From Coriobacteriia bacterium (GTDB lineage: Bacteria; Actinomycetota; Coriobacteriia; Coriobacteriales; UBA8131): DNA of 63,754 bases. Position numbers and translations under genes: made by a program. The notes under the pieces were generated by a model. That model did not search any database and was not told the DNA's origin. It saw nothing but the letters and a program-made list of their open reading frames with translations. This document shows positions 10,648 to 44,856 of the stretch, piece by piece (the first letter of the stretch is position 1; the number at the start of each line of letters is the position of its first letter). The stretch lies in the NCBI GenBank assembly GCA_009784425.1, contig WRBR01000001.1:1-63754 (forward strand), read 5' to 3'.

Positions 10648-10650
10648 TTT

Positions 10651-10773: not shown

Positions 10774-10786
10774 CCCAAAGAGATAG

Positions 10787-16739: not shown

Positions 16740-16771
16740 GCACATTTGAACCTGACAGAGGGACGTATAAG

Positions 16772-16812
16772 AGCTGAGAGCACAAAGGGACCGTCCCTTT
16801 GTGCTCTCAGCT
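16772..16812. terminator. 20-bp perfect hairpin after the ABC permease gene (GGGACCGTCCC at the apex)
   Basis: AGCTGAGAGCACAAAGGGAC C GTCCCTTTGTGCTCTCAGCT. There is no clear U-tract, so its terminator function is inferred from position only. Confidence 0.5.
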
Positions 16813-16818: not shown

Positions 16819-16976
16819 CTCGCGGCATAGAACCGTGAGTTCGTGTGACAAATGCAGCGAAATGTACGGAAATATCCCCAAATACAACTATAAACCTATA
16901 AAAACAGGCAATAATAAGGAGAAAACCGTACATTTCGCTGCATTTGTCACACGAACTCACGCTTCTATGCCGCGAG
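16819..16976. repeat. MITE-like inverted repeat: 51-bp arms (50/51 complementary) around a 56-nt AT-rich spacer
   Basis: CTCGCGGCATAGAACCGTGAGTTCGTGTGACAAATGCAGCGAAATGTACGG at 16819-16869, with its reverse complement at 16926-16976. Confidence 0.85.
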
Positions 16977-17853: not shown

Positions 17854-18030
17854 AGGTAAAAGCCACTAAGGGGTCTGATTAATACAGCAGCTACACTTGG
17901 TTTGAGTGGGCGCTGATCAATTGCCCACTCAGCTGCTTAGTATATTTATTATGCCAACGCAGTTTATTAAGGATTCATTAAGATAACTCTACCCATTTCC
18001 TTAACAAAACATATAAGAGGGCATTTGAGC

Positions 18031-18110
18031 GGGACAAAAGGGGACGGTTCATGTGTCCTGCTGGTGTCCCAGGACACCAGCAGGACACATGAACCGTCCC
18101 CTTTTGTCCC
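18031..18110. repeat. palindromic element type A, intergenic copy
   Basis: Outer arms match 8824/23275 (AAAAGGGGACGGTTCATGTGTCC). The apical stem differs on both arms (CTGCTGGTGTCC/GGACACCAGCAG versus CTGGTGTTGTCC/GGACAACACCAG). Confidence 0.9.
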
Positions 18111-18233
18111 GGTGAGTCGCTGCCTACGCTCTGTTTACAGAATATTCACATTTTTGCTTTGGGAGATATGCTGTTTAGGCGATTACTGGGGTAAAATCAA
18201 TATACGTACCAAAAAAGAGATTAGAGAAGCGCT

Positions 18234-21134
18234 ATGGGCAGTGAAGAACATAATGACTTTGATGAGATTCAGGCAAAACCAGAAGAATCTAACTTATCAA
18301 CGCCGCTGGAACCAACGGCACCTTTAGAGTCGGATCAACCACCCCCACCTTCAGCGCCGACAACCTCACCGGTTTCGCCGCCATCAAAGGCGGAGTCTGC
18401 GCCGGCAACCTCACCGCTTGCGCCTCCAGCCCCGGCAGCCCCGCCGATTATTCCTCCAGCAGCGACACCCTCACCGGTTGCACCTCCAGTGCCGATAACC
18501 CCACCTGTTGCTCCTCCACCTACAGCTCCGGTTATTTCAGTAACACCTCCGCCTCCGGCAGCAGCTGTGCCGGTCACGCCTCCAGCTCCATCGACTCCTC
18601 CCGCGCAGAAGCCAACTATCGGCTCTGCAGCTGGGTTCCAACCACAGCAACCGGCAAGCATTGGGTCAGCTGCGGGATTTGCTCCTTCCCCGGCACCCCC
18701 TGCGGCAACAACACCTCCTGCGCCTCCTGCACCAACGGCACCTCTTGCACCAGCGGCACCTGCAGGCTATGCTCAGCCGCAGGGTCAGTACGTCGCTGCG
18801 CAGAGAGGGCAGTACTATCCACCTCAGCAGACATCACCTTACGGCCAACCTTACAACCAGACATACGGCCAGCCACAGAGCCAGCCTTACACTCAACCTT
18901 ACGGCCAGCCACAGAGCCAGCCTTACGGCCAAACCTACGGCCAACCTTACGGCCAAACCTACGGCCAAACCTACGGCCAATCTTACGGCCAAACCTACGG
19001 CCAAACCTACGGCCAGCCTTACGGCCAACAACCTGGGTACCAAATGCCCACGTTTACTCCTCATGCCCCGCCCGCAAAGAAAAGAAAAGCCTGGCCGTTT
19101 GTGCTGGGTGGCATGGCAGTCTTGTTTATCCTGTTTTTGGCTATGGCCGTTGCCTTGGTAATGTGCAGTTCTGATGACCCCGTATACAATACAAACAGCA
19201 GCTGGGAAGCCCTCGTTTATACCGACCACAGCGCAACTTTGGCCGAGCGTTACGACCCCAACGATACCTGGGCAATCTACTGGTATCTCTGCGGCAGTGA
19301 CCTTGAAACAGACGCTGGCCTTGCCACAATGGATCTTCAAGAGATGATGAAGGTAAAACTGCCAGAAAATGTTGTGGTCATCATAGAAGCGGGAGGCTCA
19401 AGAGTCTGGCATAACGGATTTGATCCAAATTCCAACGGCCGTTACATTTATGACAGCAACGGCTTGAGGCTCTTGGAGGACAACCCCCGCGCCAACATGG
19501 GCGATAAAAAAACCCTCATCTCCTTCTTGGAGTTCTGCACCACTAAATACCCTGCCGACCACCAGGTTGTGATTTTCTGGAATCACGGCGGCGGCAGCAT
19601 CCCGGGTGTCATCTTTGATGAGCAGTATGGCTTTGATGCCCTGAGTCTCATGGACATCAGGGAGGCCTTTAGCGCAGTAAGCACCCCTTCAACGGTAAAC
19701 CCGCCTTTTGAGTTGATTGGATTTGACGCCTGCCTCATGGCTACCATTGAAACGGCTGAGACCCTGAAGGGATTTGCCAAATGGATGGTGGCTTCGGCAG
19801 AGATGGAGCCTGGAATCGGTTGGGACTACACGGGATTCCTTCAGGCTTTGGCAAATGACACCGGCATAGGTGGCGCCATGCTCGGCAAGGAGATATGCGA
19901 CTCCTTCTACAGCGCGTGTGTTGCAATTCGTCAGGCAAATGAGGCAACACTCTCGGTAATAAACCTGCAGAAGATTGATCCTCTGTTGGATGCCTACCAC
20001 AACATTGGGGCAGAGTCGTTGCTCTTTGCCTGTCAGAATGCCTCCTACGTCAGTGACTTTGGGCGCGCGGCAGTCAAGGCTCAAGATTATGGATTCAACA
20101 ACTCTTGGGATGGTTACACCAATATGGTTGACCTGGGCGATCTGGTCCATCAGCTGGGCAGCAATCTGCTTCCTGAATATGGAGCAGAGTTGCTCAATGC
20201 CTTGGATGCATGCGTGGTGTACCAGGTATACGGCCCCTTCCGCGACAGGTCCTCCGGGCTTGCCTGCTTCTACAACTACAGCGGCAGCGTTGATGCCTTC
20301 AGAGGCTTTTCTGAGCTTCAGGCAGATAGCCCCTTCCGCTGGCTTTACTACTACGAGCTTGCCGGTACGCTCAATGACGAGGGCATCCTCTTTGTGCAAA
20401 ACCTGGCCTTTATCTACGCGCCGGACAGAACTATCGTTCCGGGCGAGGTTGAAAGTGCCGAGGAGTTTGACCTCGATGACTGCCAGGTAAGAGGCGCTGA
20501 TGATGGTTCTGTTGTCATGAATCTAGGCTCTGAGGCTGCCAGCAGGCTTACCGGTGTCTACAGTTTTCTGGCTTATTACGACGAGGATACCGGCATAATC
20601 ATCCTGCTTGGCAGGGATAACGACATCGTCAACGACTGGGAAAACGGAATCTTCAAAAATCATTTCCGCGGCGTATGGGGCTGCATTGACAACACCCTTG
20701 TCTTTATGGAGCTCACCGACGAAGCCGATGATTACCAGCTTTACTCCATACCCGTGCTTCTTAACGGCGAAGAATACTCAATATCCGTCAGTTACACCTA
20801 TGCAACCAAGGAGTACGAAATCTTAGGTGCCCGCCGTGGAATCGACGACAATGGTATGGCGGACAGAAATCTTATTCAGCTCCAGCCGGGAGACGTCGTT
20901 GAGCCCTTACACTATGTAATCTATGACACGGCGGACGCGGAGTTTGAGCAAAAGGCACTTGAGAAATTCATAGTTACAGAAAACACCCGGTTTACCGAGG
21001 AAGATCTGGGCGACGGCATATTCTTCATCCTTTTTGAGATGATTGACGTGCTGGGCAACGAATACCTGTCAGAAGCAGCAGCCTTTATCGTGAAGGATGG
21101 AGACATCTCTATCTTCACCCATGAAGACGCTTGA
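18234..21134 (+). CDS. membrane-anchored clostripain-like (peptidase C11) protein with a roughly 280-aa Pro/Gln/Tyr-rich cytoplasmic N-terminal region
   Basis: KKRK followed by [27 protein letters not shown]11-like catalytic dyad context VIFWNHGGG and [10 protein letters not shown]-terminus is low complexity with (YGQP/T)n repeats. Confidence 0.75.
18924..19030 (+). repeat. about 9 tandem 12-nt units TACGGCCAAACC encoding (YGQT/P)n within the C11 peptidase gene
   Basis: Read directly from the sequence; in-frame coding repeat. Confidence 0.9.
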
Positions 21135-23559
21135 TTTAGGTATGGCTATCGATCTTTCCAGTCTCAACTCTCAGCAATACGAGGCCGCCACAACAACCGA
21201 GGGGCCTTTGTTGCTTTTGGCTGGCGCCGGCACCGGTAAAACGCGCGCGCTTACGTATCGCATTGCCCATATGGTTGAGAATCTGGACGTTGCTCCCTGG
21301 CAGATACTGGCCATCACTTTTACCAATAAGGCCGCGGCTGAGATGCGCGAGCGCCTGGCCGACCTCCTGGGAACCACCAGGGGCATGTGGATACTCACTT
21401 TTCATGCTCTCTGCGTGCGCATTTTGAGGAATCACGGCGAGCTTTTGGGCTTTAGCCCTGGCTTCACCATTTACGATGACGACGATTCCAAGCGCTTGGT
21501 CAAGGAGATATTGACCAATCTAGACGTCAACACCTCTACCTATCCCTTGAATACTTTGCGTGGAAACATCTCTCGGGCAAAGAATGAGCTCATCAATGCC
21601 GAGGAGTATGCCGCCAGCGCAAAAAGGCCCGTTGAGAAGGTCACTGCCCGCGTTTATTGCGAGCTGGAGCGGCGTTTGCTCCAGGCAGATGCCGTGGATT
21701 TTGATGACTTGCTCTTGCATGCCTGGCGCATTCTCAAGGACTACGCCGAGGTGCTTGAGGGCTATCAGGAGCGCTTTCTTTATATCTCAATAGACGAGTA
21801 CCAAGACACCAACCACGCCCAGTACAGCATAGCCAACCTCTTAGCCGCCAAACACCAAAACATCATGGTGGTGGGCGATGACGATCAGTCCATCTACTCA
21901 TGGCGCGGCGCCGACATCCGCAATATCCTCGAGTTTGAAAAGGACTACCCGGGCGCCAAGGTCTTGCGCCTTGAGCAAAATTACCGCTCAACCTCTTTGA
22001 TTCTCGAGGCAGCCAACAATGTTATAGCCAATAACAAGGACCGAAAGGCCAAGCACCTCTTCACCAAAGGTGAACAGGGCGAGCGCATCTGTCTCTATCT
22101 TGCTAATAACGAGCGCGACGAAGGGCGCTGGATTGCCGGGGAGATTGAGCGCTTGCACCGCTCCGGTCACTCCTACAACGACTTTGCGCTTTTTTATCGT
22201 ACTAACGCCCAGAGCCGTACGCTTGAGGATATGTTGCTGCGCGCCGGTGTGCCGTATCGCATTTACGGAGGCACGCGCTTTTTTGACCGTGAGGAAATCC
22301 GTGACATCATGGCCTACCTCAAGCTCATCGTTAATCCGCTTGATGACATTGCTGCCAAGCGAATCATCAACAAGCCGCGGCGGGGGATAGGCAGCACCAC
22401 CGTCACCCGCATTGAGCAGCTGGCGGCTGACGAGCAATGCAGCTTCATGGACGCCGCCGAGCTTGCGCTGGCTGATGAGGCGCTGCCCAAGGCGGCGCTT
22501 CGCAGCGTAGGGGAGTTTGTGCAGCTCATCAAGGACCTGCGCCTCTTAATGGGTGACCTGCGCAGCATCGTGGAGATTGTTGCAGAAAAGAGCGGTCTCA
22601 TGGACTATCTGGCCTCTTTGCCCTACGAAGAGGCAATCACACGCAAGGAGAATGTACAGGAGTTCTTTGGCGTAGCTGCCGAGTTTTCGCAGCAGCATCT
22701 GGAACAGGGGGACGGGGTTGGTGCTCTGGAACAGGGGGACGGGGTTGGTGTTCCAATTCCTGCGGAATTGGAACACCAACCCCGTCCCCCTGTTCCAGAG
22801 CACCAACCCCGTCCCCCTGTTCCACGTCCCCTTGTTCCAGAAACTTCTGCCTCAACAGCGCTTATTGCTTTTATGGAGTGGCTTGCTCTCAGGAGTGACC
22901 TTGATACTATGGTGGAGGGCGAGGACTACATTAAGCTGATGACCGTGCACACGGCAAAAGGACTGGAATTTAAAATTGTCTTTATCGCCGGCATGGAAGA
23001 GGGCATCTTCCCCCACATGATGAGCATAACGGGTGGCCGCGGTGTTGAAGAGGAGCGGCGCCTGGCTTACGTGGCTATTACCCGCGCGCGCCAACTGCTG
23101 TATCTCACCAGCGCGCAGCAACGCTCGCTTTTTGGGTCGTTTTCTGCCAATCCGCTCTCGCGCTTTACCACGGAAATCCCTGCTCAGCTGCAGAGGCGCA
23201 TTGGTCTGGGCTCGCAAGGCATTCAAGGCGTTGGCTGGGAAAAGCGCGGCAGCAGGGGCGGCGTTTTTGGTGCTGGTGAGACAAAAGGGGACGGTTCATG
23301 TGTCCTGGTGTTGTCCCAGGACAACACCAGGACACATGAACCGTCCCCTTCTGTCTCACCCAACCCCGTCCCTCCTGTACCACCGGTACCCAACAAAGAC
23401 CAGACCTTTGAGGTGAACGATGCAGTTGAGCACAAGGTCTTTGGGCGCGGAACAGTCATTTCTGTTGATGAGGGCACTATTGAGGTACAATTTGATAAGA
23501 ATAATAAGACGCGCAAATTGCTTGTTGAATTTGCTCCCCTGGCCAAGATTAAAACGTAA
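21121..23559 (+). CDS. pcrA: ATP-dependent DNA helicase PcrA/UvrD, carrying two in-frame palindromic inserts
   Basis: Motifs AGAGTGKT, DEYQDTN, TVHTAKGLEF, VAITRA and a C-terminal Tudor-like tail (HKVFGRGTVISV). The start could be ATG 21121 or ATG 21142. Confidence 0.93.
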   Translation: MKTLDLGMAIDLSSLNSQQYEAATTTEGPLLLLAGAGTGKTRALTYRIAHMVENLDVAPWQILAITFTNKAAAEMRERLADLLGTTRGMWILTFHALCVRILRNHGELLGFSPGFTIYDDDDSKRLVKEILTNLDVNTSTYPLNTLRGNISRAKNELINAEEYAASAKRPVEKVTARVYCELERRLLQADAVDFDDLLLHAWRILKDYAEVLEGYQERFLYISIDEYQDTNHAQYSIANLLAAKHQNIMVVGDDDQSIYSWRGADIRNILEFEKDYPGAKVLRLEQNYRSTSLILEAANNVIANNKDRKAKHLFTKGEQGERICLYLANNERDEGRWIAGEIERLHRSGHSYNDFALFYRTNAQSRTLEDMLLRAGVPYRIYGGTRFFDREEIRDIMAYLKLIVNPLDDIAAKRIINKPRRGIGSTTVTRIEQLAADEQCSFMDAAELALADEALPKAALRSVGEFVQLIKDLRLLMGDLRSIVEIVAEKSGLMDYLASLPYEEAITRKENVQEFFGVAAEFSQQHLEQGDGVGALEQGDGVGVPIPAELEHQPRPPVPEHQPRPPVPRPLVPETSASTALIAFMEWLALRSDLDTMVEGEDYIKLMTVHTAKGLEFKIVFIAGMEEGIFPHMMSITGGRGVEEERRLAYVAITRARQLLYLTSAQQRSLFGSFSANPLSRFTTEIPAQLQRRIGLGSQGIQGVGWEKRGSRGGVFGAGETKGDGSCVLVLSQDNTRTHEPSPSVSPNPVPPVPPVPNKDQTFEVNDAVEHKVFGRGTVISVDEGTIEVQFDKNNKTRKLLVEFAPLAKIKT
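22699..22840. repeat. nested type-B palindrome (two tandem units per arm) inside the pcrA CDS
   Basis: A 62-nt left arm, TGC loop and matching right arm span 22699-22824, followed by an extra degenerate half-site to 22840. Confidence 0.9.
23275..23382. repeat. composite type A + B-half element inside the pcrA CDS (linker before the C-terminal Tudor-like domain)
   Basis: 105/108 identical to 8824-8931 and read in the same frame. Confidence 0.9.
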
Positions 23560-24584: not shown

Positions 24585-26711
24585 ATGCTTATCTGTAATG
24601 CCAGCGCTATTACCAAGTCCTTTGGCTCGCGTGTTTTGTTTTCGGAGGCAACGTTTGCCGTTAAGTCATCCGACCGCATAGCGTTGGTTGGCGCCAATGG
24701 CTCGGGTAAAACCACGCTGCTCAATATGATTGCTCAAAGAGAGTCGCAAGATAGCGGCACGCTCACCCTCGCAAAGGGCGTGAACACCGGTTATCTGGAG
24801 CAGGAAGTTTTTGGCATTTTGAGCGAGGCAAGCGTTTTAGCAAGCGTGCTTGAAGCCAAGCAGGATGTTTTAGACATGCGCGAGAGGCTTACTGTTTTAG
24901 AAGCCAAGCTGGGAGAAGATAACAACTTTAACAGCGCTGGTGAAGCAACAGACCTTGAGCATGAGCAATTGCTCAAAGAGTATGGCCGCCTCTCGGATCT
25001 TTTTGAAAACTCCGGTGGCTGGAACTTGGAATCCGATGCCATGACGGTGCTTACCGGGCTTGGGTTTAAAATGTCCGATGCTAATCGTCAGGTAAAAGAG
25101 TTTAGCGGCGGTTGGCAGATGCGCATTGCGCTTGCACGCCTGCTTTTTGCGCGCCCTGATCTGTTGCTGCTTGATGAGCCCACCAACCACCTTGATCTGG
25201 AGAGCGTGCGCTGGCTTGAGGCCTTTTTACGCAGCTACGAGGGAGCCGTTGTGGTGGTAAGCCACGACCGCGCCTTTATGGACGGCATGGTGAGCCGCAT
25301 TTGGAACATTGAGCACGAGCAGATTCATGTGTACGCAGGCGACTACACCGACTTTGAAAAGGCAAGAGAAAGGGAGCTTGAGGCCAGGCAAGCTGCCTAT
25401 GAGCGCCAAAAGGTGGAGATTGCTCAAATTGAGCTGTTTATTAACCGCTTTAGATACAAGGCTTCTAAGGCGCGGCAGGTGCAAGAAAGAGTCAAGAAGC
25501 TTGAGAAGCTTGAACGCATCAAGCCGGTGGAGGTAAAGAGCAAAATCAAGTTTCGCTTTAAACAACCGCCGCGCACCGGCGACCAGGTTATAGAGCTCAG
25601 AGACATTGCCAAGTCTTACGGCAGCACCTGCGTGTACGGCGGCGAGCATCCGCTGCTCAACCTCAAGCTCTACCGCGGTGACCGTGTGGCGCTGGTAGGG
25701 CCAAACGGCGCCGGCAAGTCCACCATGCTTAAGATTTTGGCTGGCGTTTTGCCTTTTGAAAGCGGCGAGCGCTTGCTCGGCTCCAAGGTTGAGTCAAGTT
25801 ATTATGCGCAACATCAGGTGGAGCAGCTCAAACCCGGCGCCACGGTTTTTGAGGAGCTGGAAGGGGTGACCCCCGGCTGGACTATCAGCGAGGTGCGCGG
25901 CCTGTTGGGCGCATTTCTCTTTACCGGCGACGATGTCATGAAAAAGGTGAGAGTGCTCTCTGGTGGAGAAAAGAGCCGGCTCGCGCTGGCTAAGATGCTG
26001 GTGAGCCCTGCCCCGCTACTTTGCATGGACGAGCCCACCAATCACCTCGACATTCCCTCAAACGATGTTCTTGAGGCGGCGCTGCTAGCCTTTACCGGCA
26101 CGCTGGTGCTGATTACCCACGACAGGCATCTCATCCGCAAGGTGGCCAACCGCATCATCGAAGTTGACGCAGGCCGCGTACGCGAATTCGTGGGCAACTA
26201 CGATTATTACCTACGCAAAAAAGACGAAGAAACCGGAGACCAAGCCTTTTTTATGGACGGCTCTCAAATTGCTGTTCCTGTAGATAAACCTCCGCGCGCT
26301 AAAAAGCACGCGCACAGCGATAAAGTAAGCACTGTTGGTACAAGAGGGACGGGGTTTGGTGTACCTGTTTCCTTGGAAACTGGTACACCAAACCCCGTCC
26401 CTCTTGTACCAACGGCTGGCAGTCGAAAAACCAAGGAGCAAAAGCGCCTTGAGGCAGAAGCGCGCACCCGCACCTATCGCATGTTCAAAGAAGACCGTGA
26501 GCGACTTGAGGTGCTGGAGCCCGAGCTAGAGCAGGCGCAAGAAGAATACGACCGCATCGTAGAAGCTATGGCAGACGAGGCGCTTTATAATGACAAGGAA
26601 GGCTTTGCAGCCTTGATGGACAGGTATAATGAACTCAAGCGGCTTATCCCCAAGCTCGAAGAGGAGTGGCTGGATATCACCGCCCGCATAGAAGACGAAC
26701 TGAACGGATAA
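24585..26711 (+). CDS. ABC-F family ATPase (translation-factor type), carrying an in-frame palindromic insert in the C-terminal linker
   Basis: Two ABC cassettes ([15 protein letters not shown]; [17 protein letters not shown]), no TM domain, and a C-terminal coiled coil. Confidence 0.92.
26334..26413. repeat. type-B' palindrome (GGTACA variant) inside the ABC-F CDS
   Basis: GTTGGTACAAGAGGGACGGGGTTTGGTGTACCTGTTTCC TT GGAAACTGGTACACCAAACCCCGTCCCTCTTGTACCAAC. Confidence 0.9.
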
Positions 26712-27422: not shown

Positions 27423-27474
27423 GAGAGAGTTAAGAGTTAAGAGTTAAGAGAGAAGAGTTAAGAGAGAAGAGTGA
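27423..27474. repeat. heptamer tract (GAGTTAA)3 GAGAGAA GAGTTAA GAGAGAA GAGTGA
   Basis: Read directly. It starts 2 nt after the M50 protease stop. Confidence 0.85.
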
Positions 27475-27557
27475 TCCTTTTCATCTTGAGCGAAGCGTAG
27501 TGTAGTTGAAGGATTTAGTGTAAAACAATCAAGTAAGAAAGCAGGAACAGAGACCGA

Positions 27558-28580: not shown

Positions 28581-28582
28581 GA

Positions 28583-28760
28583 GTGGTACAGGAGGGACGG
28601 GGTTTGGTGAGTGGTACAGGAGGGACGGGGTTAGTGTACCACTTTGGCTCTTGAGCCAAAGTGGTACACTAACCCCGTCCCTCCTGTACCACCTCCTGTA
28701 CCACTCACCAAACCCCGTCCCTCCTGTACCACTCACCAAACCCCGTCCCTCCTGTACCAC
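28583..28760. repeat. nested type-B' palindrome between trpS and scpA
   Basis: Two GGTACAGGAGGGACGGGG units, an apical stem CACTTTGGCTC TT GAGCCAAAGTG, and three mirror units on the right. Confidence 0.9.
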
Positions 28761-28781
28761 TCCCAGTAAGAAACGAGAGGC

Positions 28782-30284: not shown

Positions 30285-30357
30285 ATGAGTCATGGGGACG
30301 GGGAAAGTGACTCTTTTATGCAGAAAAAGAGTCACTTTCCCCGTCCCCGTGACTCAT
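30285..30357. repeat. palindrome of the GAGTCA-GGGGACGGGG-TGACTC type between scpB and rluB
   Basis: ATGAGTCATGGGGACGGGGAAAGTGACTCTTTT / ATGCAG / its reverse complement (1 mismatch). A half copy recurs at 63604-63633. Confidence 0.88.
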
Positions 30358-32112: not shown

Positions 32113-32652
32113 ATGCAGGAAGAATTCAGGATACTTGGTGTTGATCCCGGGTTGGCTAACTCAGGCTGGGGGATTATCGCTGTGCAGGGGAGTAAGCTCA
32201 GGCCGCTTGCTTATGGTTCGATTTCTACTGACTCAAAAGAGGAGCTGCCGCTGCGTTTAGCCAGGATTTATGATGAGTTTGCAGCGGTTATTCTCAAGTA
32301 TGTACCTGCCGAGCTGAGCATTGAGACTATCTACCATAAGGGCAATCCCAAGAGTTCGCTTTCAACGGCTCAGGCGCGCGGAGTGGCTCTGGTGGCTGCG
32401 GCACGCAGTTCGCTGGTGGTAAACGAGTACGCCCCTTCTGCGATAAAGCAGGCGGTGGTTGGCACAGGGTCAGCCACCAAACAGCAGGTGCAGTTCATGG
32501 TGCGGAGCCTGCTAGAGCTCAATCACACCCCCGAGCCCAATCACGCAGCCGACGCCTTGGCTGCCGCCATCTGTCACGCACACCTTCGCAGGTATAATGG
32601 TTTGGTACAGGAGGGACGGGGCTTGGTGAGTGGTACAGAGGGACGGGGTTAG
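32113..32652 (+). CDS. ruvC: crossover junction endodeoxyribonuclease RuvC
   Basis: ILGVDPG and ADALAAAICHAH motifs. The last roughly 17 codons and the TAG stop lie inside the palindromic repeat 32603-32736. Confidence 0.92.
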   Translation: MQEEFRILGVDPGLANSGWGIIAVQGSKLRPLAYGSISTDSKEELPLRLARIYDEFAAVILKYVPAELSIETIYHKGNPKSSLSTAQARGVALVAAARSSLVVNEYAPSAIKQAVVGTGSATKQQVQFMVRSLLELNHTPEPNHAADALAAAICHAHLRRYNGLVQEGRGLVSGTEGRG

Positions 32653-32736
32653 TGTACCACTTTGGCTCTTGAGCCAAAGTGGTACACTAACCCCGTCCCT
32701 CTGTACCACTCACCAAGCCCCGTCCCTCCTGTACCA
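32603..32736. repeat. nested type-B' palindrome covering the 3' end of ruvC
   Basis: Nearly identical to the 28583 element, including the apical stem CACTTTGGCTCTTGAGCCAAAGTG. It contains the ruvC TAG stop. Confidence 0.9.
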
Positions 32737-32753
32737 CACAAGGAAGGAAAAAC

Positions 32754-35905: not shown

Positions 35906-38728
35906 GTGGGTTTTCAGCATGTTGTTTCAACGGAGGTCGCCTTGGCAAGCAGACATCAGAGCAAGTCAGCAGACAAGGCACTTGCTGCCGAGCGCTTTGT
36001 TGAGGAGTGGCAGGACCGCGGCCAAGAGGATGAGCATGATGAGACCTTCTGGAACCAGTTTCTGCAAGAAGTCATGGGCATCGACCGCGTTCACCACATC
36101 ATTGACTACCAGAAGAAAGTGAAGATAGGCGGCTCATGGAAGCGCATTGATGCTTACATTCCCAGTTCCAAGGTGCTGATTGAGCAAAAGACAAGAGGCA
36201 TTGACCTCACCAAAGGAGCCAAGCAATCCGACGGCAGCGAACTTACGCCTTTTGAGCAGGCAATGCGCTACGCAGGGTATCTGCCCGCAAGCGAGCAGCC
36301 CAGCTACATCATCACCTCCAACTTTCAAGAGTTTTACATCTATGACAGAGATAATGACCCGGCAGGGGAGGAGCCGGTGGTTGTTTCACTTGAGGAGCTG
36401 CCTCAGCAGCTGCAGGTATTCAGCTTCATCGTTGACCCGGTCAACCGAAAGATTGCCAAACAGCAGCAGGTCAACCTCGATGCCGCCAAGCTCATTGGCG
36501 AAGTCTACGAAAGCGTAAGCAAGCAATACCACGACCCCGATGCCTCAAGGCATGACCTGGCAGTGCTCATGGTGCGCGTACTCTTTTGCCTCTATGCTGA
36601 GGACAGCGCGCTCTTTGAGCGCAATCTCTTCTACGATTACCTCAAGGAGATTCCCGCAGGCGAAGGCGTGTTTCGTGACGCGCTCATCAAGCTCTTTAGG
36701 GTGCTCAACACGCCGGTAGATGAGCGAGATGCCTATTTGGGCGAAACACTTGCACAGTTTCCCTATGTCAACGGCGGCCTTTTTGCTGATGAGATTGAGA
36801 TTCCCATCTTTACCAACGACATCAAGTTCCAAATGCTCCAAAAGGCAGGCTATGAGTTCAACTGGTCAGAGATATCACCGGTAATCTTTGGCTCAATCTT
36901 CGAGAGCATCCTCTCAGGAGACGAGCGCCGCGCCGGAGGCATGCACTACACCAGTGTAGAAAACATCCACAAGGTCATTGACCCCTTGTTCTTGGGTGAG
37001 CTCCGCCTTGAATTTCAAAAAGCCGGCAACAACAAAGCCAAACTGCGCGAGCTGCAAGACAAGATTGCCTCACTCAAATTCCTCGACCCCGCCTGCGGCA
37101 GCGGCAACTTCCTTACTGAGACCTATATAGAGCTCCGCGCTCTAGAAAACGAGATCCTCGGCAAACTCTTTGGCGAGCAAATGGCTATCGAGTACCAAGA
37201 GGAAGGCTTTCCGTCTTTCGTGAAGGTCAACGTAGGCCAGTTCTATGGCATTGAGATCAACGATTTTGCTGTTTCCGTTGCCAACACTGCGTTATGGATT
37301 GCCGATCACCAATCAAACCAACAAACTGCAAAAATCATCAACCGCCCCGTGGTGAACCTACCCCTGAAAAACTACGACAACATTGTCTGCGCCAATGCCC
37401 TCCGCATTGACTGGAATGAGGTGATTCCGGCAAGCGCGTGTGACTACATCATGGGTAATCCCCCGTTTATTGGCAAAAAGGAACAGACCAAAGAACAGAA
37501 AAACGAACTAATAGATGTAATCGGGAAATCAAAGCGATCAGGGGAGCTAGATTATGTTGCCGGCTGGTACTACAAAGCCACTGACTATATGCGAGACAAT
37601 ACTGAAGCTGCGTTTGTGTCTACAAATTCGATAACACAAGGCCAGCAAGTACAGCCTCTCTGGCAAGTACTTTTTGAGCGCGGTGTCCGGATTGCATTTG
37701 CACACAGAACCTTTGTTTGGAGGTCTGAGGCAGTGGATTCCGCACACGTCCACGTTGTTATCATCGGTTTTTCGTATAAAAAGTGCTTACCTGTGCTCTA
37801 CACCTACCCAAAAACCAGAACTGACCCAGTGCGGCTCATTGTCCAGAATATTAATGCCTATTTGGCTGACGCACCGGACGTGTTCATTGAGAGCAGAAAA
37901 ATGCAGATATCCAATGCTCCTACAATGAATTATGGAAGTATGCCTATTGATGACGGGGCGCTAATTGTTTCTCAAGACGAATACGAGCTGCTAATAAACA
38001 AAGAACCGGGCACTTTAAAGCTTTTACGCCGCTATCTAGGTGGCCAAGAGTTAATCAACAATAAAACAAGGTACTGTATCTGGCTCAAAGACATTCCGCC
38101 TACGGAGTTCAAAGAATCAGACTTTGTAACAGGGAGAATAAGAAAATGTCAGGAATTCAGACTCTCAAGCAGTAGGCCAACCACTTTGAACTTGGCAAAA
38201 ACTCCTTACCTGTTTGGCGAAATAAGACAACCAGACAACAAAATGCTTGTAATAGCGAAAGTGTCTTCTGAAAACCGCGATTATCTACCTTTAGGGTTTG
38301 TAGAGCCGGAAGTGATTGTAAATGGCAGCGCTCTGATTTTGCCAGACGCAAATCTATACCATTTCGGCATATTGAGCTCACAATTCCATAATTCTTGGAT
38401 GCGTGCTGTCGGAGGCCGCTTGGAATTACGCTATCAGTACTCAAAAGATATTGTATACAACAGCTTCGTTTGGCCGGAGAGCGGCTCAGATGTGGAAAAG
38501 AGGATTGCGCAATGCGCGCAGAGCATCCTGGACGCACGAGCTGCCTACCCAGATAGCTCCCTCGCCGACCTCTACGACCCCCTCACTATGCCACCCGACT
38601 TACTCAAAGCCCACAAAGCCCTCGACAAAGCCGTCGAACAAGCCTACGGCGTAAACTTCAACGGCGACGAAGAAAAAATAGTCGCCCACCTCTTCAAACT
38701 CTACGCCGAAGCCACAAAAGGAGTATAA
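35906..38728 (+). CDS. MmeI-like Type IIL restriction-modification enzyme (fused PD-(D/E)xK nuclease + gamma-class N6-adenine methyltransferase + target-recognition domain)
   Basis: N-terminal RIDAYIPSSKVLIEQK (D-x10-ExK), MTase motif I LDPACGSGNFL and motif IV GNPPFIG, with a long C-terminal TRD. The architecture is collinear with MmeI. A TTG at 35942 behind GGAGG is an alternative start. Confidence 0.85.
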   Translation: MGFQHVVSTEVALASRHQSKSADKALAAERFVEEWQDRGQEDEHDETFWNQFLQEVMGIDRVHHIIDYQKKVKIGGSWKRIDAYIPSSKVLIEQKTRGIDLTKGAKQSDGSELTPFEQAMRYAGYLPASEQPSYIITSNFQEFYIYDRDNDPAGEEPVVVSLEELPQQLQVFSFIVDPVNRKIAKQQQVNLDAAKLIGEVYESVSKQYHDPDASRHDLAVLMVRVLFCLYAEDSALFERNLFYDYLKEIPAGEGVFRDALIKLFRVLNTPVDERDAYLGETLAQFPYVNGGLFADEIEIPIFTNDIKFQMLQKAGYEFNWSEISPVIFGSIFESILSGDERRAGGMHYTSVENIHKVIDPLFLGELRLEFQKAGNNKAKLRELQDKIASLKFLDPACGSGNFLTETYIELRALENEILGKLFGEQMAIEYQEEGFPSFVKVNVGQFYGIEINDFAVSVANTALWIADHQSNQQTAKIINRPVVNLPLKNYDNIVCANALRIDWNEVIPASACDYIMGNPPFIGKKEQTKEQKNELIDVIGKSKRSGELDYVAGWYYKATDYMRDNTEAAFVSTNSITQGQQVQPLWQVLFERGVRIAFAHRTFVWRSEAVDSAHVHVVIIGFSYKKCLPVLYTYPKTRTDPVRLIVQNINAYLADAPDVFIESRKMQISNAPTMNYGSMPIDDGALIVSQDEYELLINKEPGTLKLLRRYLGGQELINNKTRYCIWLKDIPPTEFKESDFVTGRIRKCQEFRLSSSRPTTLNLAKTPYLFGEIRQPDNKMLVIAKVSSENRDYLPLGFVEPEVIVNGSALILPDANLYHFGILSSQFHNSWMRAVGGRLELRYQYSKDIVYNSFVWPESGSDVEKRIAQCAQSILDARAAYPDSSLADLYDPLTMPPDLLKAHKALDKAVEQAYGVNFNGDEEKIVAHLFKLYAEATKGV

Positions 38729-38897
38729 ATGCCAATCCCATCCCAAACAGAGATGTTCAGACCCACATGCTGACCTCATACTTATCGATGGCGCGCACCT
38801 AACAAGCCTGATGATAGATTACGATCTAGGTGTGACCGCATACGAGACAATCAAACTCAAGCGCCTCGATTCAGATTATTTTATCCGCGATGAGTAA
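38729..38897 (+). pseudogene. remnant of an Mrr-type methylation-dependent restriction endonuclease (internal deletion plus frameshift)
   Basis: ATG at 38729 gives MPIPSQTEMFRPTC then a stop, which resembles an Mrr N-terminus. A different frame from 38772 reads DLILIDGAHLTSLMIDYDLGVTAYETIKLKRLDSDYFIRDE, which resembles an Mrr C-terminus. The roughly 250 aa in between are missing. Confidence 0.7.
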
Positions 38898-38903
38898 AGC
38901 AAA

Positions 38904-38980
38904 GGTGTCACGGGGACGAATGTGTCACGGGGAAAGGTGTCACGGGGACGAGGTGTCACGGGGACGAATAATTTGACACC
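38904..38980. repeat. tandem array of 4 x GGTGTCACGGGGA(C/A)
   Basis: Unit starts are at 38904, 38922, 38936 and 38952. The last unit closes with TGACACC, forming a hairpin with GGGGACG in the loop. Confidence 0.85.
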
Positions 38981-38982
38981 TG

Positions 38983-39513
38983 CTACAGCGAATGAAGATA
39001 CTTCATGATTCTAGTTGCATTGTCTAGAGACAGCTTTTCGATTGCGCCATGCTTTAAGTAGGTGTTCACATTTCCCGCATCTAGATTTAGGTAATGACTA
39101 ATTTGCGAGTTTGGCACTCCCTTTTCCTTTTGCAGCTGCACGCTCTTTTCCCATCTAAGCTTCTTCGACTCATTGCGTGTGTCGATTCTTTGATACGCAG
39201 CTTTGAATGAAAGCAAGGCTTTCTCATACCTATCAGGCAGTTGCACCTCATCTAAAATAGCTGGATCGTCAAGATTCTTCTCTCTGAGCATCTGTGAAAG
39301 CGCAGCTAATTCCTCCAAGAAATCTTCTCGATAGAGAAAGCTCCGCAATCGCTCAACTTTGCCTGCTGCTATAGCGTAGAGCACGAGACGCTCCTGTAAC
39401 CGAGGCTTTGATGTTTGCGCCAAATAGGCGAGTCTGCGCATATTGAGCGTGCTCTCCCCAGAAAGATAGGAAAGCTCTCGAGTTACCCAGCCCTCAAAAC
39501 TAGGACGTCTCAT
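38983..39513 (-). CDS. helical protein with C-terminal XRE/Cro-like HTH, partner of the upstream nucleotidyltransferase
   Basis: Start chosen at ATG 39513, behind GAAGG. It overlaps the end of the upstream gene by 14 nt in another frame. C-terminal GVPNSQISHYLNLDAGNVNTYLKHG...LSLDNATRIMKYL fits an HTH. Confidence 0.65.
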   Translation of the reverse strand: MRRPSFEGWVTRELSYLSGESTLNMRRLAYLAQTSKPRLQERLVLYAIAAGKVERLRSFLYREDFLEELAALSQMLREKNLDDPAILDEVQLPDRYEKALLSFKAAYQRIDTRNESKKLRWEKSVQLQKEKGVPNSQISHYLNLDAGNVNTYLKHGAIEKLSLDNATRIMKYLHSL

Positions 39514-40099
39514 TATTACCTTCAATCGAATGTGCAAGGTCAACAATCACTTGATAGCGGGACAAGAAGGTCTCCCACTCTTCTTCGGTGTCATAGTTCA
39601 CGCGCATCTCTACATCGTTTTTGAGTATCGATTGAAGCAGCTTCATATCAAGCTCACCGCTGTAAACCATGTCCTTCAAATCGCCTTGGTCTATTTCTCG
39701 AAAGGCATCCAGTTTCAAAATAGCCAAGTCCTCATTAGAGGGGGAATAAACATCGAGCACCATGCCCTCGAAGGGCACCCTCTGTCGTCGAATCAACCAG
39801 TTTTCAGGTAGTCGAAATCTATAGTTTGCAACCTGTTGATTCATATCGTACCGCTCAAGGAGGCCTTTTATTTCTTGGGCAGCCTCCATAACATCAATGT
39901 CAGTTGTAACTCTTGTGTCAACAGTCAAACCAAGCACCATTAGTGCGCTTCCTCCAACTATTGTCATTTCAACGCGAGAGCCAAAAGGAACAAGTGAAAG
40001 AAGGTCATCGTCTAACTGCTCAAAACGGCGGATTACGCCGTCGATACCAAAGTGATCCATGTGAGCCCTTTCAGGACAAATCTTAGTTAGTGTAAACAT
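39500..40099 (-). CDS. minimal nucleotidyltransferase (Pol-beta superfamily, MNT/DUF6036-like)
   Basis: The G[GS]-x(n)-DxD signature is IVGGSALMVLGLTVDTRVTTDIDV, followed by a helical C-terminal half. An alternative start at ATG 40060 (MDHFGIDG) has a better SD (AAAGGG). Confidence 0.65.
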   Translation of the reverse strand: MFTLTKICPERAHMDHFGIDGVIRRFEQLDDDLLSLVPFGSRVEMTIVGGSALMVLGLTVDTRVTTDIDVMEAAQEIKGLLERYDMNQQVANYRFRLPENWLIRRQRVPFEGMVLDVYSPSNEDLAILKLDAFREIDQGDLKDMVYSGELDMKLLQSILKNDVEMRVNYDTEEEWETFLSRYQVIVDLAHSIEGNNETS

Positions 40100-40122
40100 T
40101 GTAAATAAAAAGGGAGAAATTG

Positions 40123-40151
40123 TAAATATAAGAGCGCACCGCAGGTGTCAA
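40123..40151 (-). promoter_or_regulatory. putative sigma-70-type promoter of the nucleotidyltransferase-HTH operon
   Basis: On the minus strand: TTGACA (the reverse complement of a GGTGTCAA repeat word), a 17-nt spacer, then TATTTA, 24 nt upstream of ATG 40099. Confidence 0.4.
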
Positions 40152-40356
40152 GGTGTCACGGAGGAAGGTGTCACGGGAGGGGAGTCACAGGGACGTCAGA
40201 CTGTGTGAAAACACATTAATTCGTCATTCCGGGCTTGACCCGGAATCTAATAACATGCCATTCAAGATTCCGGGTCAAGCCCGGAATGACGTTTTCACAC
40301 AGTCTGACGTCCCTGTGACACCCGTGACACCCCTTGACACTCCATCCCCGTGACAC
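40144..40356. repeat. composite palindrome: outer arrays of GGTGTCA(A/C) words enclosing a 118-bp nested-hairpin element (40193-40310)
   Basis: Left GGTGTCAAGGTGTCACGGAGGAAGGTGTCACGGGAGGGGAGTCACAGGGAC, mirrored at 40311-40356. The inner element has ACGTCAGACTGTGTGAAAA termini and two ATTCCGGGCTTGACCCGGAAT hairpins. Confidence 0.85.
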
Positions 40357-40465
40357 TCTCATGTCTTCTATTGGCTCTGCCCCTCGCTCATTCGCTTGCT
40401 TTTCACTTGGTATGATGAGATAATAACTCAACGTACTGAGTAATTTGTGTTTCCAAGGAGGATCT

Positions 40466-41737
40466 ATGGAGTATAGTCGGAAACTCGTCTCCCAGCTAGC
40501 TTGGAGGCTGCAAGAGCCCCGCCAGTTCATCCAGATTGTGGTTGGACCGCGGCAAACCGGCAAAACTACAGCGGTTAGTCAGGCGCTCTCTGATATCTCC
40601 ACACCCATACACTTTGTTAGTGCTGACGATCCGGGACTGCTTTCACAAAGCTGGCTTAAAAACGAATGGGAGAGAGCGCGAGTCCTGAGTGAAAGCTCAG
40701 AGCTTGGTGCAATTCTCGTTGTTGACGAGATTCAGAAGATTCCTCAGTGGTCTTCTGTTGTAAAGCTGATGTGGGATGAAGACACGCGATTCAAAACACC
40801 GGTAAGAGTTGTACTCACCGGCTCTTCATCGCTGCTTCTCAAAAAAGGCATGAGTGAATCTCTTGCAGGACGTTTTGAGGTGCTGTATTCACCGCATTGG
40901 AACCTCGAGGAATGCAGAGAGGCATTTGGTTACACTCTTGAAGACTTCCTCTACTTTGGGGGATATCCTGGAGCAGCCAGTATTCGTAAATCGGTTGAGC
41001 GGTGGAGACGATACATGAGTACTTCAATCGTTGAGCCCACGATTTCTCAGGATGTGCTGCAAATGGAAGAAATCCGCAAGCCTGCTCTTATGAGAGCACT
41101 CTTCTATTTAGGTGCAGCTTATTCTGCACAAGAACTGTCGTATGTAAAGCTTCAGGGGCAATTGCAAGACGTTGGCAACACCGTTACCCTAGCTCATTAT
41201 CTGGAGCTACTGGGACGCGCCGGCATGCTTTGCGGGCTTGAGAAGTTCACCTTTGAAAAGGTGAGCCAACGCAAAAGCTCCCCCCGTTTTATGGTTTTTG
41301 ATACATCGCTCTTGGTTCACGCAGCAGATGTTTCATGTGCTCAGGCTCTTGAGGACACCGGTTTTCGCGGCCATCTTGTGGAGAGTGCAGTTGGGGCGTA
41401 TCTCCTTGCACGCTCACAGGAAGAAGGGTTCAAGGTGTTTTACTGGCGTGAGCGCAACCACGAGGTAGACTTTGTGCTACAAAAAGGGGCTTCTATTACC
41501 GCTATAGAGGTCAAGAGTGGGCGAGTGCGAGGATTAGACGGCAGCCAGGCTTTTCTCAAGCGTTACCCACAAGCACTTTGCTACGTGGTAGGCGGTAAAA
41601 CCTGCCCTCTGGAAGAATTCTTGTTAGGAAAGGTGACACTCTTCAAGGCAGCTGACAGAGCAACGGATACAACACCGGTTACCCCTGCAGAAATCATAGG
41701 CGCGTTTAGAGAGTACCTGGGAGAGCGAGCTGACTAA
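40466..41737 (+). CDS. AAA-type ATPase with C-terminal DUF4143 (restriction-endonuclease-like) domain
   Basis: Walker A GPRQTGKTT, Walker B ILVVDEIQ, and C-terminal NHEVDFVL...AIEVKSG motif. Start at ATG 40466 behind AAGGAGG. Confidence 0.8.
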   Translation: MEYSRKLVSQLAWRLQEPRQFIQIVVGPRQTGKTTAVSQALSDISTPIHFVSADDPGLLSQSWLKNEWERARVLSESSELGAILVVDEIQKIPQWSSVVKLMWDEDTRFKTPVRVVLTGSSSLLLKKGMSESLAGRFEVLYSPHWNLEECREAFGYTLEDFLYFGGYPGAASIRKSVERWRRYMSTSIVEPTISQDVLQMEEIRKPALMRALFYLGAAYSAQELSYVKLQGQLQDVGNTVTLAHYLELLGRAGMLCGLEKFTFEKVSQRKSSPRFMVFDTSLLVHAADVSCAQALEDTGFRGHLVESAVGAYLLARSQEEGFKVFYWRERNHEVDFVLQKGASITAIEVKSGRVRGLDGSQAFLKRYPQALCYVVGGKTCPLEEFLLGKVTLFKAADRATDTTPVTPAEIIGAFREYLGERAD

Positions 41738-42062
41738 GGAGTTCTCCTGGCTCAGGTTGTAAGCGATATCTCCTTTAGCAAGCGCTCGCTGAGGGTCACC
41801 TTTGACCCTGCTATCAAGGGAATCGACACTGAGGTATTGCTCAGCGTAAGCCCTTATTCTAATCACGCAGAGTTTGTTGGTGCTCCCATAGCGTTTGACG
41901 ATAGTCTTGGTACGCGGCTAAGACCAGCTCTAGATGAGATAGAGACATTTCTGTTAGATGGTACAAATCTTGGCGCGCTTTCAACAGCGGAAGTATATCG
42001 CATGGGAACCGGCAAAGAGCTCTGAAGTTGAGCCCTGCTGGTCATTCCAAGTTTTTGCTAGA

Positions 42063-42220
42063 TTTTGCCTGAAAACGCGTCCTGTGGGTACTATTTTTCA
42101 AGCCAGGAGCGTTGTCCTGGAATGACCCGCGCAATCTACCAGCAGTTTAGCAATCCAAGAAATTCTGAAGGGCTCCACCATAAAAAGAAAAGTACCCACA
42201 GGGCGCGTTTTCAGGCAAAA
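42063..42220. repeat. MITE-like element with 30-bp terminal inverted repeats (29/30)
   Basis: TTTTGCCTGAAAACGCGTCCTGTGGGTACT at 42063-42092, with its complement at 42191-42220. Internal small hairpin CCAGGA-GCGTTG-TCCTGG. Confidence 0.75.
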
Positions 42221-42317
42221 ACGCTTCTTTTTATGGAATGAAACCACTGCCTGCACCGCCAGTAGCGCCGGGAGTGAATGGTGACCAATAATTATCGGGA
42301 ATTTGGCAGGATAAAAC

Positions 42318-42333
42318 GGTGTCACGTGACACC
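42318..42333. repeat. 16-bp perfect palindrome GGTGTCACGTGACACC
   Basis: Read directly. It lies about 35 nt downstream of the stop of the zinc-ribbon gene. Confidence 0.8.
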
Positions 42334-42366
42334 GAAGGGGCGATACAGCAATAGGAGTTCTTGTGT

Positions 42367-43011
42367 CTAATGCCTGATGCGATTCTTAGCAGACTGCCTC
42401 TGGTTTCTCTTCTTCTGTTTCTCCTCACAAACCTTGCAGCAATACACTGAGCTAGAGCTTGGCCTTACCGATGTGTCCGTTTGCTTTCTTTTAAATACCC
42501 TCTCGCAGCCGACACAGGCACATCGCCTCCAAGGAGCATCATCGGCAATCGTGTTAATAGTCTGGTTGCTTATTGCCCATGTTGGTGAAAGCCTATCACG
42601 CAGCCTTCGGTTGTTAAGAATAATGTCATATGGATAGTAGGTCGAGTCGAGAATGAGCGATAAATCAATGTCGGCAGCCTCTCCAATAACGTATCTCCTT
42701 AAATCTTTGACTATTGACTGGAAAAAGCTGATTGAGGACACTGTTTCATCGAACGAGAATATGACATCAAACATGTCAAAGAACTCTCTTGAATACTCTG
42801 TGATGTTGATGGCTTCACTGTGCCTTGCGTAACTCCTATCACCCTTGAACACAGAATACCTTCTATATGGAGAGAGGGGAACGCCCCACTTACTGATAAA
42901 GGTGAAGACGCTTTCTTCGTTTGCCGGGTCAACATCCATGATTTGATGATTGAAGAATTCGGTAGGAAGAAGATGCATCTTGCCTCTTACAGAGGTTGCC
43001 CTGTATATCAA
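42367..43011 (-). CDS. hypothetical protein with C-terminal CxxC...CxxC zinc ribbon and basic tail (CGNR-zinc-finger-like)
   Basis: 214-aa ORF in visibly AT-richer DNA. C-terminus reads CACVGCERVF-x17-CCKVCEEKQKKRNQRQSAKNR. Confidence 0.5.
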   Translation of the reverse strand: MIYRATSVRGKMHLLPTEFFNHQIMDVDPANEESVFTFISKWGVPLSPYRRYSVFKGDRSYARHSEAINITEYSREFFDMFDVIFSFDETVSSISFFQSIVKDLRRYVIGEAADIDLSLILDSTYYPYDIILNNRRLRDRLSPTWAISNQTINTIADDAPWRRCACVGCERVFKRKQTDTSVRPSSSSVYCCKVCEEKQKKRNQRQSAKNRIRH

Positions 43012-43084
43012 GAAACTGCCATCAACAACCTCAATCGCTCTGCTGAAGATGTCTTTATGAACTGGGCTCTCACAGGCTTTTGTT

Positions 43085-43511: not shown

Positions 43512-43512
43512 A

Positions 43513-44197: not shown

Positions 44198-44224
44198 TGT
44201 GTATATACGAAAGGTGTATACACA
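44198..44224 (+). promoter_or_regulatory. inverted repeat TGTGTATA-N11-TATACACA upstream of mazE (putative MazE/MazEF operator)
   Basis: Read directly. It ends 14 nt upstream of the mazE ATG. Confidence 0.45.
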
Positions 44225-44237
44225 AGAAGGTGATTAC

Positions 44238-44851: not shown

Positions 44852-44856
44852 GTGGT

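Follow-up and report, generated by a model that had tools for sequence, protein, structure and literature searches.

REPIN-RAYT systems have been treated as largely proteobacterial, their defining feature being a hairpin with a GTAG foot. As far as recognition by RAYTs is known, it depends on a GT[AG]G foot, and single-stranded cut-and-rejoin chemistry has been shown for E. coli TnpA-REP and for the IS200/IS605 enzymes. To our knowledge, no DNA partner is known for the second-largest class of RAYT-like proteins. The described systems are the REP/BIME sequences of Enterobacteria and Pseudomonas (Bertels & Rainey 2011; Ton-Hoang 2012; Messing 2012). REPs have been linked to RAYT groups 2 and 3 only (Bertels 2017, PMC5581495).

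REPs have also been sorted into GTAG- and CGTC-tagged families, with intragenic REPs often found in repair genes such as UvrD, and the same survey reported "TIRYT" genes that have GGGGWSAS inverted repeats on their flanks (Di Nocera 2013, PMC3733652). TIRYT corresponds to TnpA_Y1 subclass 2.1, with an NHVH motif, an FQ motif, and a C-terminal HTH or DnaA_C-like domain, and no REP-like sequences or secondary structures were found for this subclass (Quentin 2018, PMC6006769).

Here, we analyze a whole 63,754-nt contig (the window) of an uncultured Coriobacteriales bacterium from the gut, in which nearly perfect palindromes built on small hairpins hold a common core at 15 loci. We think it likely that these elements are REPIN-like non-autonomous palindromes moved by a Y1/HUH enzyme of the RAYT kind, and that they represent one lineage's branch of a hairpin family with a very wide distribution. 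What is new, set against the closest described genes, is the occurrence of REP-like hairpins beside Y1 genes that resemble TIRYT or subclass 2.1, for which no REPs had been reported.

Results

A conserved core in hairpin loops nested in large palindromes

The core GGGGACGG occurs 19 times in the window compared to 1.68 ± 1.40 expected from dinucleotide-preserving shuffles, whose maximum was 5. The enrichment is ∼11-fold, so the first outcome that the initial annotation had named as refuting, a core no more frequent than base composition predicts, did not occur. With at most one mismatch, GGGACGGGG was found 32 times in the window (14.2 expected). All 14 loci at which the core had been placed, in a list given as a minimum, carry it or a close variant, and a covariance model built on the wider family (see below) adds one more at 45284-45316. 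Window copies read GGGACGG followed by a varied 3′ part, and the canonical motif of the wider family is GGGGACGGTTCT.

The large palindromes that had been claimed around the core are real. A repeat finder located them at 8820, 10648, 18030, 22700, 23275, 26334, 28581, 30285, 32600, and 40180, with arms of 33 to 69 nt and 97 to 100% complementarity. Their inner units form small hairpins whose loop carries the core. Across all the window loci that were read, type A has the form GG(A/T)ACA-(R)GGGGACGGGGTT(A/G)G-TGT(T/A)CC; type B is GGACA-AAAGGGGACGGTTCATG-TGTCC, and type C is GAGTCA-TGGGGACGGGGAAAG-TGACTC. The stem words quoted earlier were all present (GGAACA/TGTTCC, GGTACA/TGTACC, GAGTCA/TGACTC, GGTGTCA/TGACACC, and CACAG/CTGTG).

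The proposal that each arm can also fold locally into small hairpins needs qualifying: the closing stem word is restricted to the innermost unit of each arm, and the outer tandem units lack this word. Where both arms are present, the long hairpin (−91.7 kcal/mol; z of −20.5) far outcompetes the small ones (−2.6 to −7 kcal/mol) when folded as a single strand. A hybrid copy at 7942 of metagenome contig L015 (GGAACA..TGTACC) has a broken small stem and an intact large palindrome. The tandem arrays have periods of 27 to 28 nt and 63 nt. Units are indeed duplicated in tandem within arms, as had been stated, but the symmetry also claimed for these duplications fails at 28581-28762. This type-A element begins 1 nt past the TrpS stop codon, extends to before scpA, and consists of 28-nt units (GTGGTACAGGAGGGACGGGGTTTGGTGA) that reappear as reverse complements beyond a central hairpin, with two units on the left and three plus a fragment on the right. 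The exact TrpS protein was matched on metagenome contigs only. Of these contigs, L001 matches the window identically over the repeat, and L002 breaks off within it. Upstream of trpS, at ∼27427-27477 (340-390 in L002), AGAGTTAAG-like units form a short tandem array, and the end of the trpS gene (..GAGAGTTAAGAGTGG) contains the same word.

A type-A dimer (GGAACA stem) with perfect 44-nt arms and one extra unit, at 10648-10770, separates the radical-SAM and DUF2344 genes. A type-B dimer with perfect 40-nt arms occupies an intergenic site upstream of a C11 peptidase gene (18030-18111), and a type-C dimer fills the short ScpB-RluB spacer (30285-30357), the true start of RluB being at 30368. On the forward strand at 38904-38985, locus reading and the covariance model show a one-armed array of four tandem GGTGTCACGGGGACGA units closed by TGACACC. 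The additional locus on the reverse strand (45284-45316), absent from the earlier list of 14, is a single hairpin with a variant core, GTGCGTCAA-GGGGACTCTCCT-CTTGACGCAC, and a single type-C unit on the forward strand at 63604-63636 was also found by the covariance model. This last unit abuts a second, unrelated MITE-like palindrome with ∼60-nt arms (..GGCACACTGGGGTCAGTTCCTGCCGCGTTTGCACGCAAAAAGACGACTTTT) and a ∼40-nt center, which occupies 63640-63754, ends the window contig, and recurs at 2530-2680 of L015, where it again abuts a GGGGACGG unit.

The loci at 16772, 40144, and 56690 are degenerate or composite. The first (16758-16812) is a degenerate palindrome of abutting half-cores (..AAAGGGAC/CGTCCCTTT..), with a covariance-model E of 0.015. 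At 40140-40356, the repeat finder shows degenerate GTGTCAC/GGGACG units as arms around a nested double hairpin, CGTCATTCCGGGCTTGACCCGGAATGACG, and at 56690-56870 the repeat finder and the covariance model show one core unit (56697) adjoining the second copy of that hairpin. The CGTCATTCCGGGCTTGACCCGGAATGACG hairpin represents a third family of repeats, situated amid degenerate core units. It forms inverted pairs at 40222-40291 and 56781-56850, and each copy lies within TTTTCACACAGTCTGACGT arms. Two other inverted repeats, at 16819-16976 (51-nt arms 56 nt apart) and 42063-42220 (36-nt arms 86 nt apart), have no similarity to the core family. The region from 35906 to 45936 has a lower GC content (46 to 50%) and encodes an MmeI-type restriction-modification enzyme, a DUF6036 nucleotidyltransferase, a DUF4143 ATPase, and a MazE/MazF pair. 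We regard this region as a probable defense or mobile island.

Many copies begin within a few nucleotides of a stop codon in co-directional operons. A role as intrinsic terminators was nevertheless rejected, since no T-runs follow the hairpins and there were no sense-strand terminator calls on the elements, and terminator counts in the window were close to the shuffle expectation. A search of the window with Rfam gave no matches at the gathering score, and no tRNA genes were found in it.

In-frame copies within genes

Five of the 15 loci, about a third, lie within or overlap open reading frames (ORFs), and for several of these copies the intragenic position had been missed in the initial annotation. 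Four are in frame within genes (two in PcrA, one in an ABC-F gene, and one in a gene for a radical-SAM protein), and the fifth overlaps the end of RuvC. The PcrA/UvrD ORF (21097-23559) reads through a type-A element with two units per arm and perfect 61-nt arms (22698-22845) and through a type-B dimer with a type-A half unit in the linker preceding the Tudor domain (23275-23385), without loss of the Tudor domain or of any helicase domain. Both insertion sites are hypervariable linkers in an alignment with 13 homologues. The ABC-F ORF (24585-26711) reads through a type-A dimer with a GGTACA stem (26334-26413) located ahead of the C-terminal domain. In the radical-SAM ORF (8728-10647), a type-B dimer with perfect 46-nt arms and extra C-strand units (8820-8950) lies in the N-terminal linker, after the conserved ..KPSRYIGAEL, and the public gene call (P0121) spans the element. 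For RuvC, the last ∼17 codons and the TAG stop are supplied by a type-A element with 69-nt arms of 99% complementarity (32600-32739), leaving 15 nt between its end and ruvA. All six frames are open in the copies at 22698 and 26334; several intergenic copies carry a TTAG variant and contain stop codons.

Using as a query a chimera of all translated repeat frames, which is insensitive and gave three matches, we also found BirA with an in-frame type-B peptide, TKGDGSCVLVLSQDNTRTHEPSPFV, in L016 (from metagenome-assembled genome [MAG] GCA_009779685.1) and in L015. The latter contig (11 kb, from the same sample as L001) contains six elements, one of which has the 63-nt tandem period and lies inside a POR-family gene.

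Rickettsia palindromic elements (RPEs; Ogata 2000) reportedly also sit in frame in protein-coding genes, and we know of no transposase for them. Like RPEs and intragenic REPs (PMC3733652), the elements described here are in-frame palindromes at tolerated linkers, often in DNA repair genes, UvrD-type helicases included. They differ from RPEs in that the sequence family and the hosts are unrelated.

Covariation of stem words in a wider family

We scanned metagenome contigs with the pattern GGGGACGGKKYWN{20,50}WRMMCCGTCCCC, in which the motif is fixed in both arms and the stem words are free. The same pattern is found 5 times in the window, with 0 expected. The scan returned at least 120 stretches from many habitats, with 131 distinct units among the matches listed. 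Nearly all of the listed matches read W-GGGGACGGTTCT-W′...W-AGAACCGTCCCC-W′, where W and W′ are complementary to each other and different in nearly every unit (for example, AGCGCGCA/TGCGCGCT, ATAAGACA/TGTCTTAT, and GGAGACA/TGTCTCC). Stems are of free sequence over 5 to 10 bp and loops are of 12 to 17 nt.

Among the 131 listed units, the contiguous stem has a mean length of 4.8 bp compared to 2.49 ± 0.10 bp with shuffled partners, and 62 distinct stem words are found among the 72 units whose stem reaches 5 bp or more. In a gap-free alignment (A3), 66.0% of cells are paired compared to 44.4 ± 1.2% in shuffles, and the covariation score is 0.557 compared to 0.219; none of 500 shuffles reached either value. 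Controls in which the partner was slid gave at most 49.4% paired cells and a score of at most 0.253. The covariation suggested earlier from a few stem words is thus strong in a larger sample whose stems were left unconstrained.

A covariance model built from the metagenome units alone finds the window copies at 8826, 10653, 18030, 22725, 23277, 30284, and 63604 in addition to the new one at 45284, with E values of 1e-5 to 5e-3. Type-A copies with AGGGACGG (26334 and 28581) gave no score. On other contigs, the model gave 6, 11, and 3 matches in L011, L015, and L016, respectively, and none in L012 or L014. The canonical GGGGACGGTTCT is carried by L011, a contig syntenic with the window, which ties the window's lineage to the superfamily.

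In canonical units (L011 6286-6322 and L137 9835-9871), the predicted fold extends into the motif, where GGGG and TCTC pair via G·T pairs and leave an ACGGT loop. The complementary strand cannot make this extension, so the two strands are predicted to be structurally unequal.

A scan of species-representative genomes with ACAGGNGGGACGGGGTTNGTG gave seven single matches (L004-L010), all of which we rejected as chance occurrences since they encode the Rossmann NAD-binding motif V-T-G-G-T-G-F-V-G. This sequence recurs across phyla as codons of that motif and is a trap for core-based motif scans. In the open literature searched, motif 11- and 12-mers were found only as unrelated primer sequences, and they were absent from the supplements examined of the two key papers.

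Copy positions differ among close relatives

Among PcrA homologues carrying organism names, those of Coriobacteriales and Coriobacteriia MAGs share 69 to 75% identity, followed by Eggerthellaceae with ∼56%. We compared the window with syntenic loci of relatives. L011 (PcrA 80% and ABC-F 83% identical to the window) carries the hairpin family, which is absent from L012/L013 and L014 (73 to 77% for both proteins).

The element in the window's ABC-F gene is 78 nt long (26 codons), and its site is empty in the 83%-identical L011 orthologue, which lacks the 27- to 29-residue insert of the window protein. That orthologue has its own element in a different, N-terminal linker, and this second site is empty in the window. 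At the junction, the window reads ..ACTGTT, the 78-nt element, and AACGGC.., with no target duplication, which fits Y1 chemistry. An unrelated palindrome with 32-nt arms (..GTGACAAGGGAAGCGCTGCTCTG..) is present in frame at the same ABC-F linker position in L012 (15154-15223), a locus without the hairpin family, and the linker seems to be a recurrent landing site. Both PcrA linkers are also occupied in L011: the one that holds 22698 in the window contains a decayed copy, and the other contains a different subtype.

In L012 and L014, the radical-SAM gene overlaps the DUF2344 gene (GTGGCTGA), and in the window the element splits the two. An 11-bp direct duplication, GTGGCTGATTT, brackets this element (10648-10792) at 10640-10650 and 10793-10803 and restores both the stop and the start codon. 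Since it rebuilds the overlapping stop/start pair, the duplication may be explained by selection. From the upstream GTG in the 10640-10803 region, a frame of 48 codons runs through the element to a TAG (10784-10786) just before GTG codons 10787 and 10793 of the DUF2344 frame, an arrangement that could lead to translational coupling.

Sites that are empty or differently filled in close relatives indicate that the elements moved recently. Copy positions at ABC-F and at the radical-SAM/DUF2344 junction show that the copies are not ancient sequence fixed in place.

Y1/HUH transposase genes flanked by hairpins

All-against-all clustering of ORFs from the 120 listed hairpin loci gave no common neighbor. 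The clusters were mostly of ABC transporters and kinases, and no recurrent DDE transposase was found near the 120 listed hairpin loci. At 2 of the 120 listed loci, which were selected by their hairpins and form a single two-locus cluster, a Y1/HUH transposase gene is abutted by hairpins. In one (L024), the element overlaps the stop codon of the Y1 gene; in the other (L094), the gene lies between two elements at distances of ∼10 nt and ∼70 nt.

Both proteins match Pfam Y1_Tnp above the cutoff. The sole NCBIfam match is REP_Tyr_transpos, "REP-associated tyrosine transposase" (NF047646), at 56 to 59 bits against a curated cutoff of 80. In a single-sequence search, the best PDB match was TnpArep from E. 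coli (4er8; E of 0.0024), aligned across the HUH and Tyr motifs; a PDB search with a two-sequence profile returned nothing. The Y1 protein is 246 to 281 amino acids long, contains NHVH and LFQDR, and has C-terminal matches to HTH_23, HTH_28, and HTH_Tnp_1, all below threshold. A profile search recovered more than 7,600 relatives, including those of Butyrivibrio sp. VCB2001 and of Lachnospiraceae and Bacteroidaceae MAGs, and several homologues are named RayT by JGI. Many of the relatives are on contigs of ∼0.9 to 2 kb, as would follow from repeats on either side of the gene.

Four loci picked by the protein alone have hairpins on both sides of the gene (L137, L143/L144, L145, and L146), a REPtron layout. 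In the cultured Butyrivibrio sp. VCB2001 (L137), one unit is 132 nt upstream of the Y1 gene and two inverted units begin 1 nt after its stop codon. These three matches all lie within 135 nt of the gene, and there are none elsewhere in the 20.7 kb. For L143/L144, L145, and L146, further copies occupy neighboring spacers. In L139-L142, the Y1 gene is flanked instead by GAGCCAAAA-GGGGTCAGACCCC-AATTGGCTC. L146 is syntenic with these four Bacteroidales-like loci and their Y1 genes are orthologous; the motif is GGGGACGGTTCC in L146 and GGGGTCAGACCCC in L139-L142, which suggests that enzyme and hairpin motif switch together.

In total, family hairpins directly flank a Y1/HUH gene at six independent loci (L024, L094, L137, L143/L144, L145, and L146). 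At the level of the superfamily, these loci support the earlier suggestion of a REP/BIME-like system with a RAYT-type transposase. The absence of a RAYT-type gene from the window, also noted before, agrees with our searches. Neither phmmer nor a 120-sequence profile found a Y1 homologue in the 63.7-kb window or in ∼28 kb of loci from the lineage (L001-L003, L011, L015, and L016), and Pfam identified no transposase among 30 window ORFs scanned. The link between the enzyme and the Coriobacteriia genome therefore rests on repeat homology.

Discussion

The hairpins share several features with REPIN-RAYT systems. Both are high-copy short hairpin repeats with inverted doublets that form long hairpins, both have a Y1/HUH gene flanked by repeats (here in other organisms), and in both the stems coevolve within lineages and contigs break at copies. 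The differences are also clear. There is no GT[AG]G foot at the 5′ end, and a conserved GGGGACGG(TTCT) lies between the stem words instead. The hosts are Coriobacteriia, Clostridia, and Bacteroidales rather than Proteobacteria, 5 of the 15 window loci are in or overlap ORFs, and the Y1 protein, at 246 to 281 amino acids, is longer, with a C-terminal tail that is HTH-like by below-threshold matches.

By its motifs, the Y1 protein resembles TnpA_Y1 subclass 2.1, with NHVH, an FQ motif, and a C-terminal HTH-like extension (again from sub-threshold matches). Like TIRYT genes, these genes are flanked by inverted repeats with a GGGG-led motif. GGGGACGG matches GGGG[AT][CG]A[CG] at seven of eight positions, departing at position 7, and the GGGGTCAG that flanks the Bacteroidales homologues (L139-L142) fits it exactly. 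The published TIRYT repeats are terminal inverted repeats, whereas those described here are hairpins with covarying stems in large dispersed populations.

With the CGTC-tagged REPs (Di Nocera 2013), the window elements share GACG/CGTC in the core, a predominance of head-to-head dimers, and the absence of a transposase from the vicinity. Membership in that family was rejected because CGTC here lies inside the loop or motif, the 5- to 10-bp stems are free, and the loops are of 12 to 17 nt. CGTC-tagged REPs have an unpaired end tag, an 8- to 9-bp stem starting with A/T pairs, a 4- to 5-nt loop, and a CCA tail, none of which is present in our elements.

The RAYT-type reading is supported for the hairpin superfamily. 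In the mechanism that we propose, the unit would be a small hairpin in which two complementary words of free sequence enclose the conserved motif. The Coriobacteriia genome would encode, in a single copy, a RAYT-type Y1/HUH transposase most similar to TIRYT/TnpA_Y1 subclass 2.1, and this enzyme would recognize the folded single-stranded hairpin together with the motif. By analogy with E. coli TnpA-REP and the IS200/IS605 enzymes, it would cut and rejoin single-stranded DNA, so that units and inverted doublets would spread without target duplication. Since the stem would need pairing alone, stem words would drift by compensatory change and the motif would stay fixed. Copies would persist where tolerated, just past stop codons and in short operon spacers, and stop-free copies with a length divisible by three would persist in flexible protein linkers. 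Several observations count against this reading: the lack of a Y1 gene in the window and in ∼28 kb of other loci from the lineage, the NCBIfam score below the curated cutoff, the absence of the GT[AG]G foot, the type-A copies with AGGGACGG that the covariance model does not score, and an 11-bp duplication at one site that would not be expected from a Y1 mechanism. The perfect 40- to 69-nt arms also count against it, since they need a very recent origin or homogenization.

The elements might instead be host structural or regulatory sites, such as mRNA 3′-end stabilizers, attenuators, or nucleoid-protein sites, kept by selection and multiplied by duplication only, without a dedicated transposase. 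The many copies starting a few nucleotides past stop codons in co-directional operons would fit such sites, as would the strand asymmetry, in which the G-strand hairpin can add G·T/G·U pairs and the C-strand hairpin cannot; the same was noted for REPs thought to act as RNA (PMC3733652). We nevertheless find this explanation improbable, given the four loci in frame within ORFs and the fifth overlapping the end of RuvC, the sites that differ among close relatives, and the absence of T-tails and terminator calls on the elements and of Rfam matches in the window. Nor does it account for the hairpins flanking Y1 genes. Mobility could coexist with a role in the host.

If replication errors were the only source (template switching, hairpin-primed synthesis, and slippage at a G-rich seed), no specific enzyme would be required and the Y1 association would be secondary. 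The unequal number of units between the arms at 28581-28762, the tandem arrays with periods of 27 to 28 nt and 63 nt, and the perfect arms are what such errors could produce, and slippage probably shapes copy number within an element. As the sole cause, however, they are very unlikely, since they explain neither a 12-nt motif conserved across phyla with freely varying stems, nor dispersal to unrelated sites, nor the presence of hairpins to either side of the Y1 gene at every protein-selected locus.

The least probable explanation is that of MITEs moved by a DDE-type transposase that reads the palindrome arms as terminal inverted repeats and creates target-site duplications, for which the 11-bp duplication GTGGCTGATTT around 10648-10792 and the other MITE-like palindromes in the window can be cited, but the conserved motif is internal rather than terminal, no DDE transposase recurs near the 120 listed hairpin loci, the sole recurrent neighboring gene of note encodes the Y1/HUH enzyme, and there is no duplication of constant length, with none in the clean ABC-F filled/empty pair and the 11-bp one at a single other site where selection for the overlapping stop/start pair may account for it.

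The elements also matter in practice. They add 25 to 50 amino acids to essential proteins (PcrA, ABC-F, BirA, radical-SAM, and POR), which affects annotation and protein-family alignments, and the repeats break metagenome assemblies. The hairpin family is also a natural record of stem-loop coevolution.

A different type of hairpin flanks RAYT-like genes and is densely represented in gut anaerobes from three phyla. In single-stranded form, W-GGGGACGGTTCT-W′ offers a concrete, testable candidate substrate for the orphan Y1 enzymes, and for the Butyrivibrio sp. VCB2001 protein (P0131) the candidate substrate is single-stranded GGGAGTCAAT-GGGGACGGTTCT-CTTTGACTCCC. It is quite possible, if somewhat short of probable, that the W-GGGGACGGTTCT-W′ hairpins are the missing cognate REP/REPIN population of a large "orphan" Y1 clade (TIRYT/TnpA_Y1 subclass 2.1, possibly RAYT group 1). 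If so, gut Clostridia, Bacteroidales, and Coriobacteriia would commonly carry REPIN-RAYT systems, their recognition logic would place the conserved sequence in the hairpin loop rather than at the foot, and the Coriobacteriales elements would colonize protein linkers in frame at an unusually high rate.
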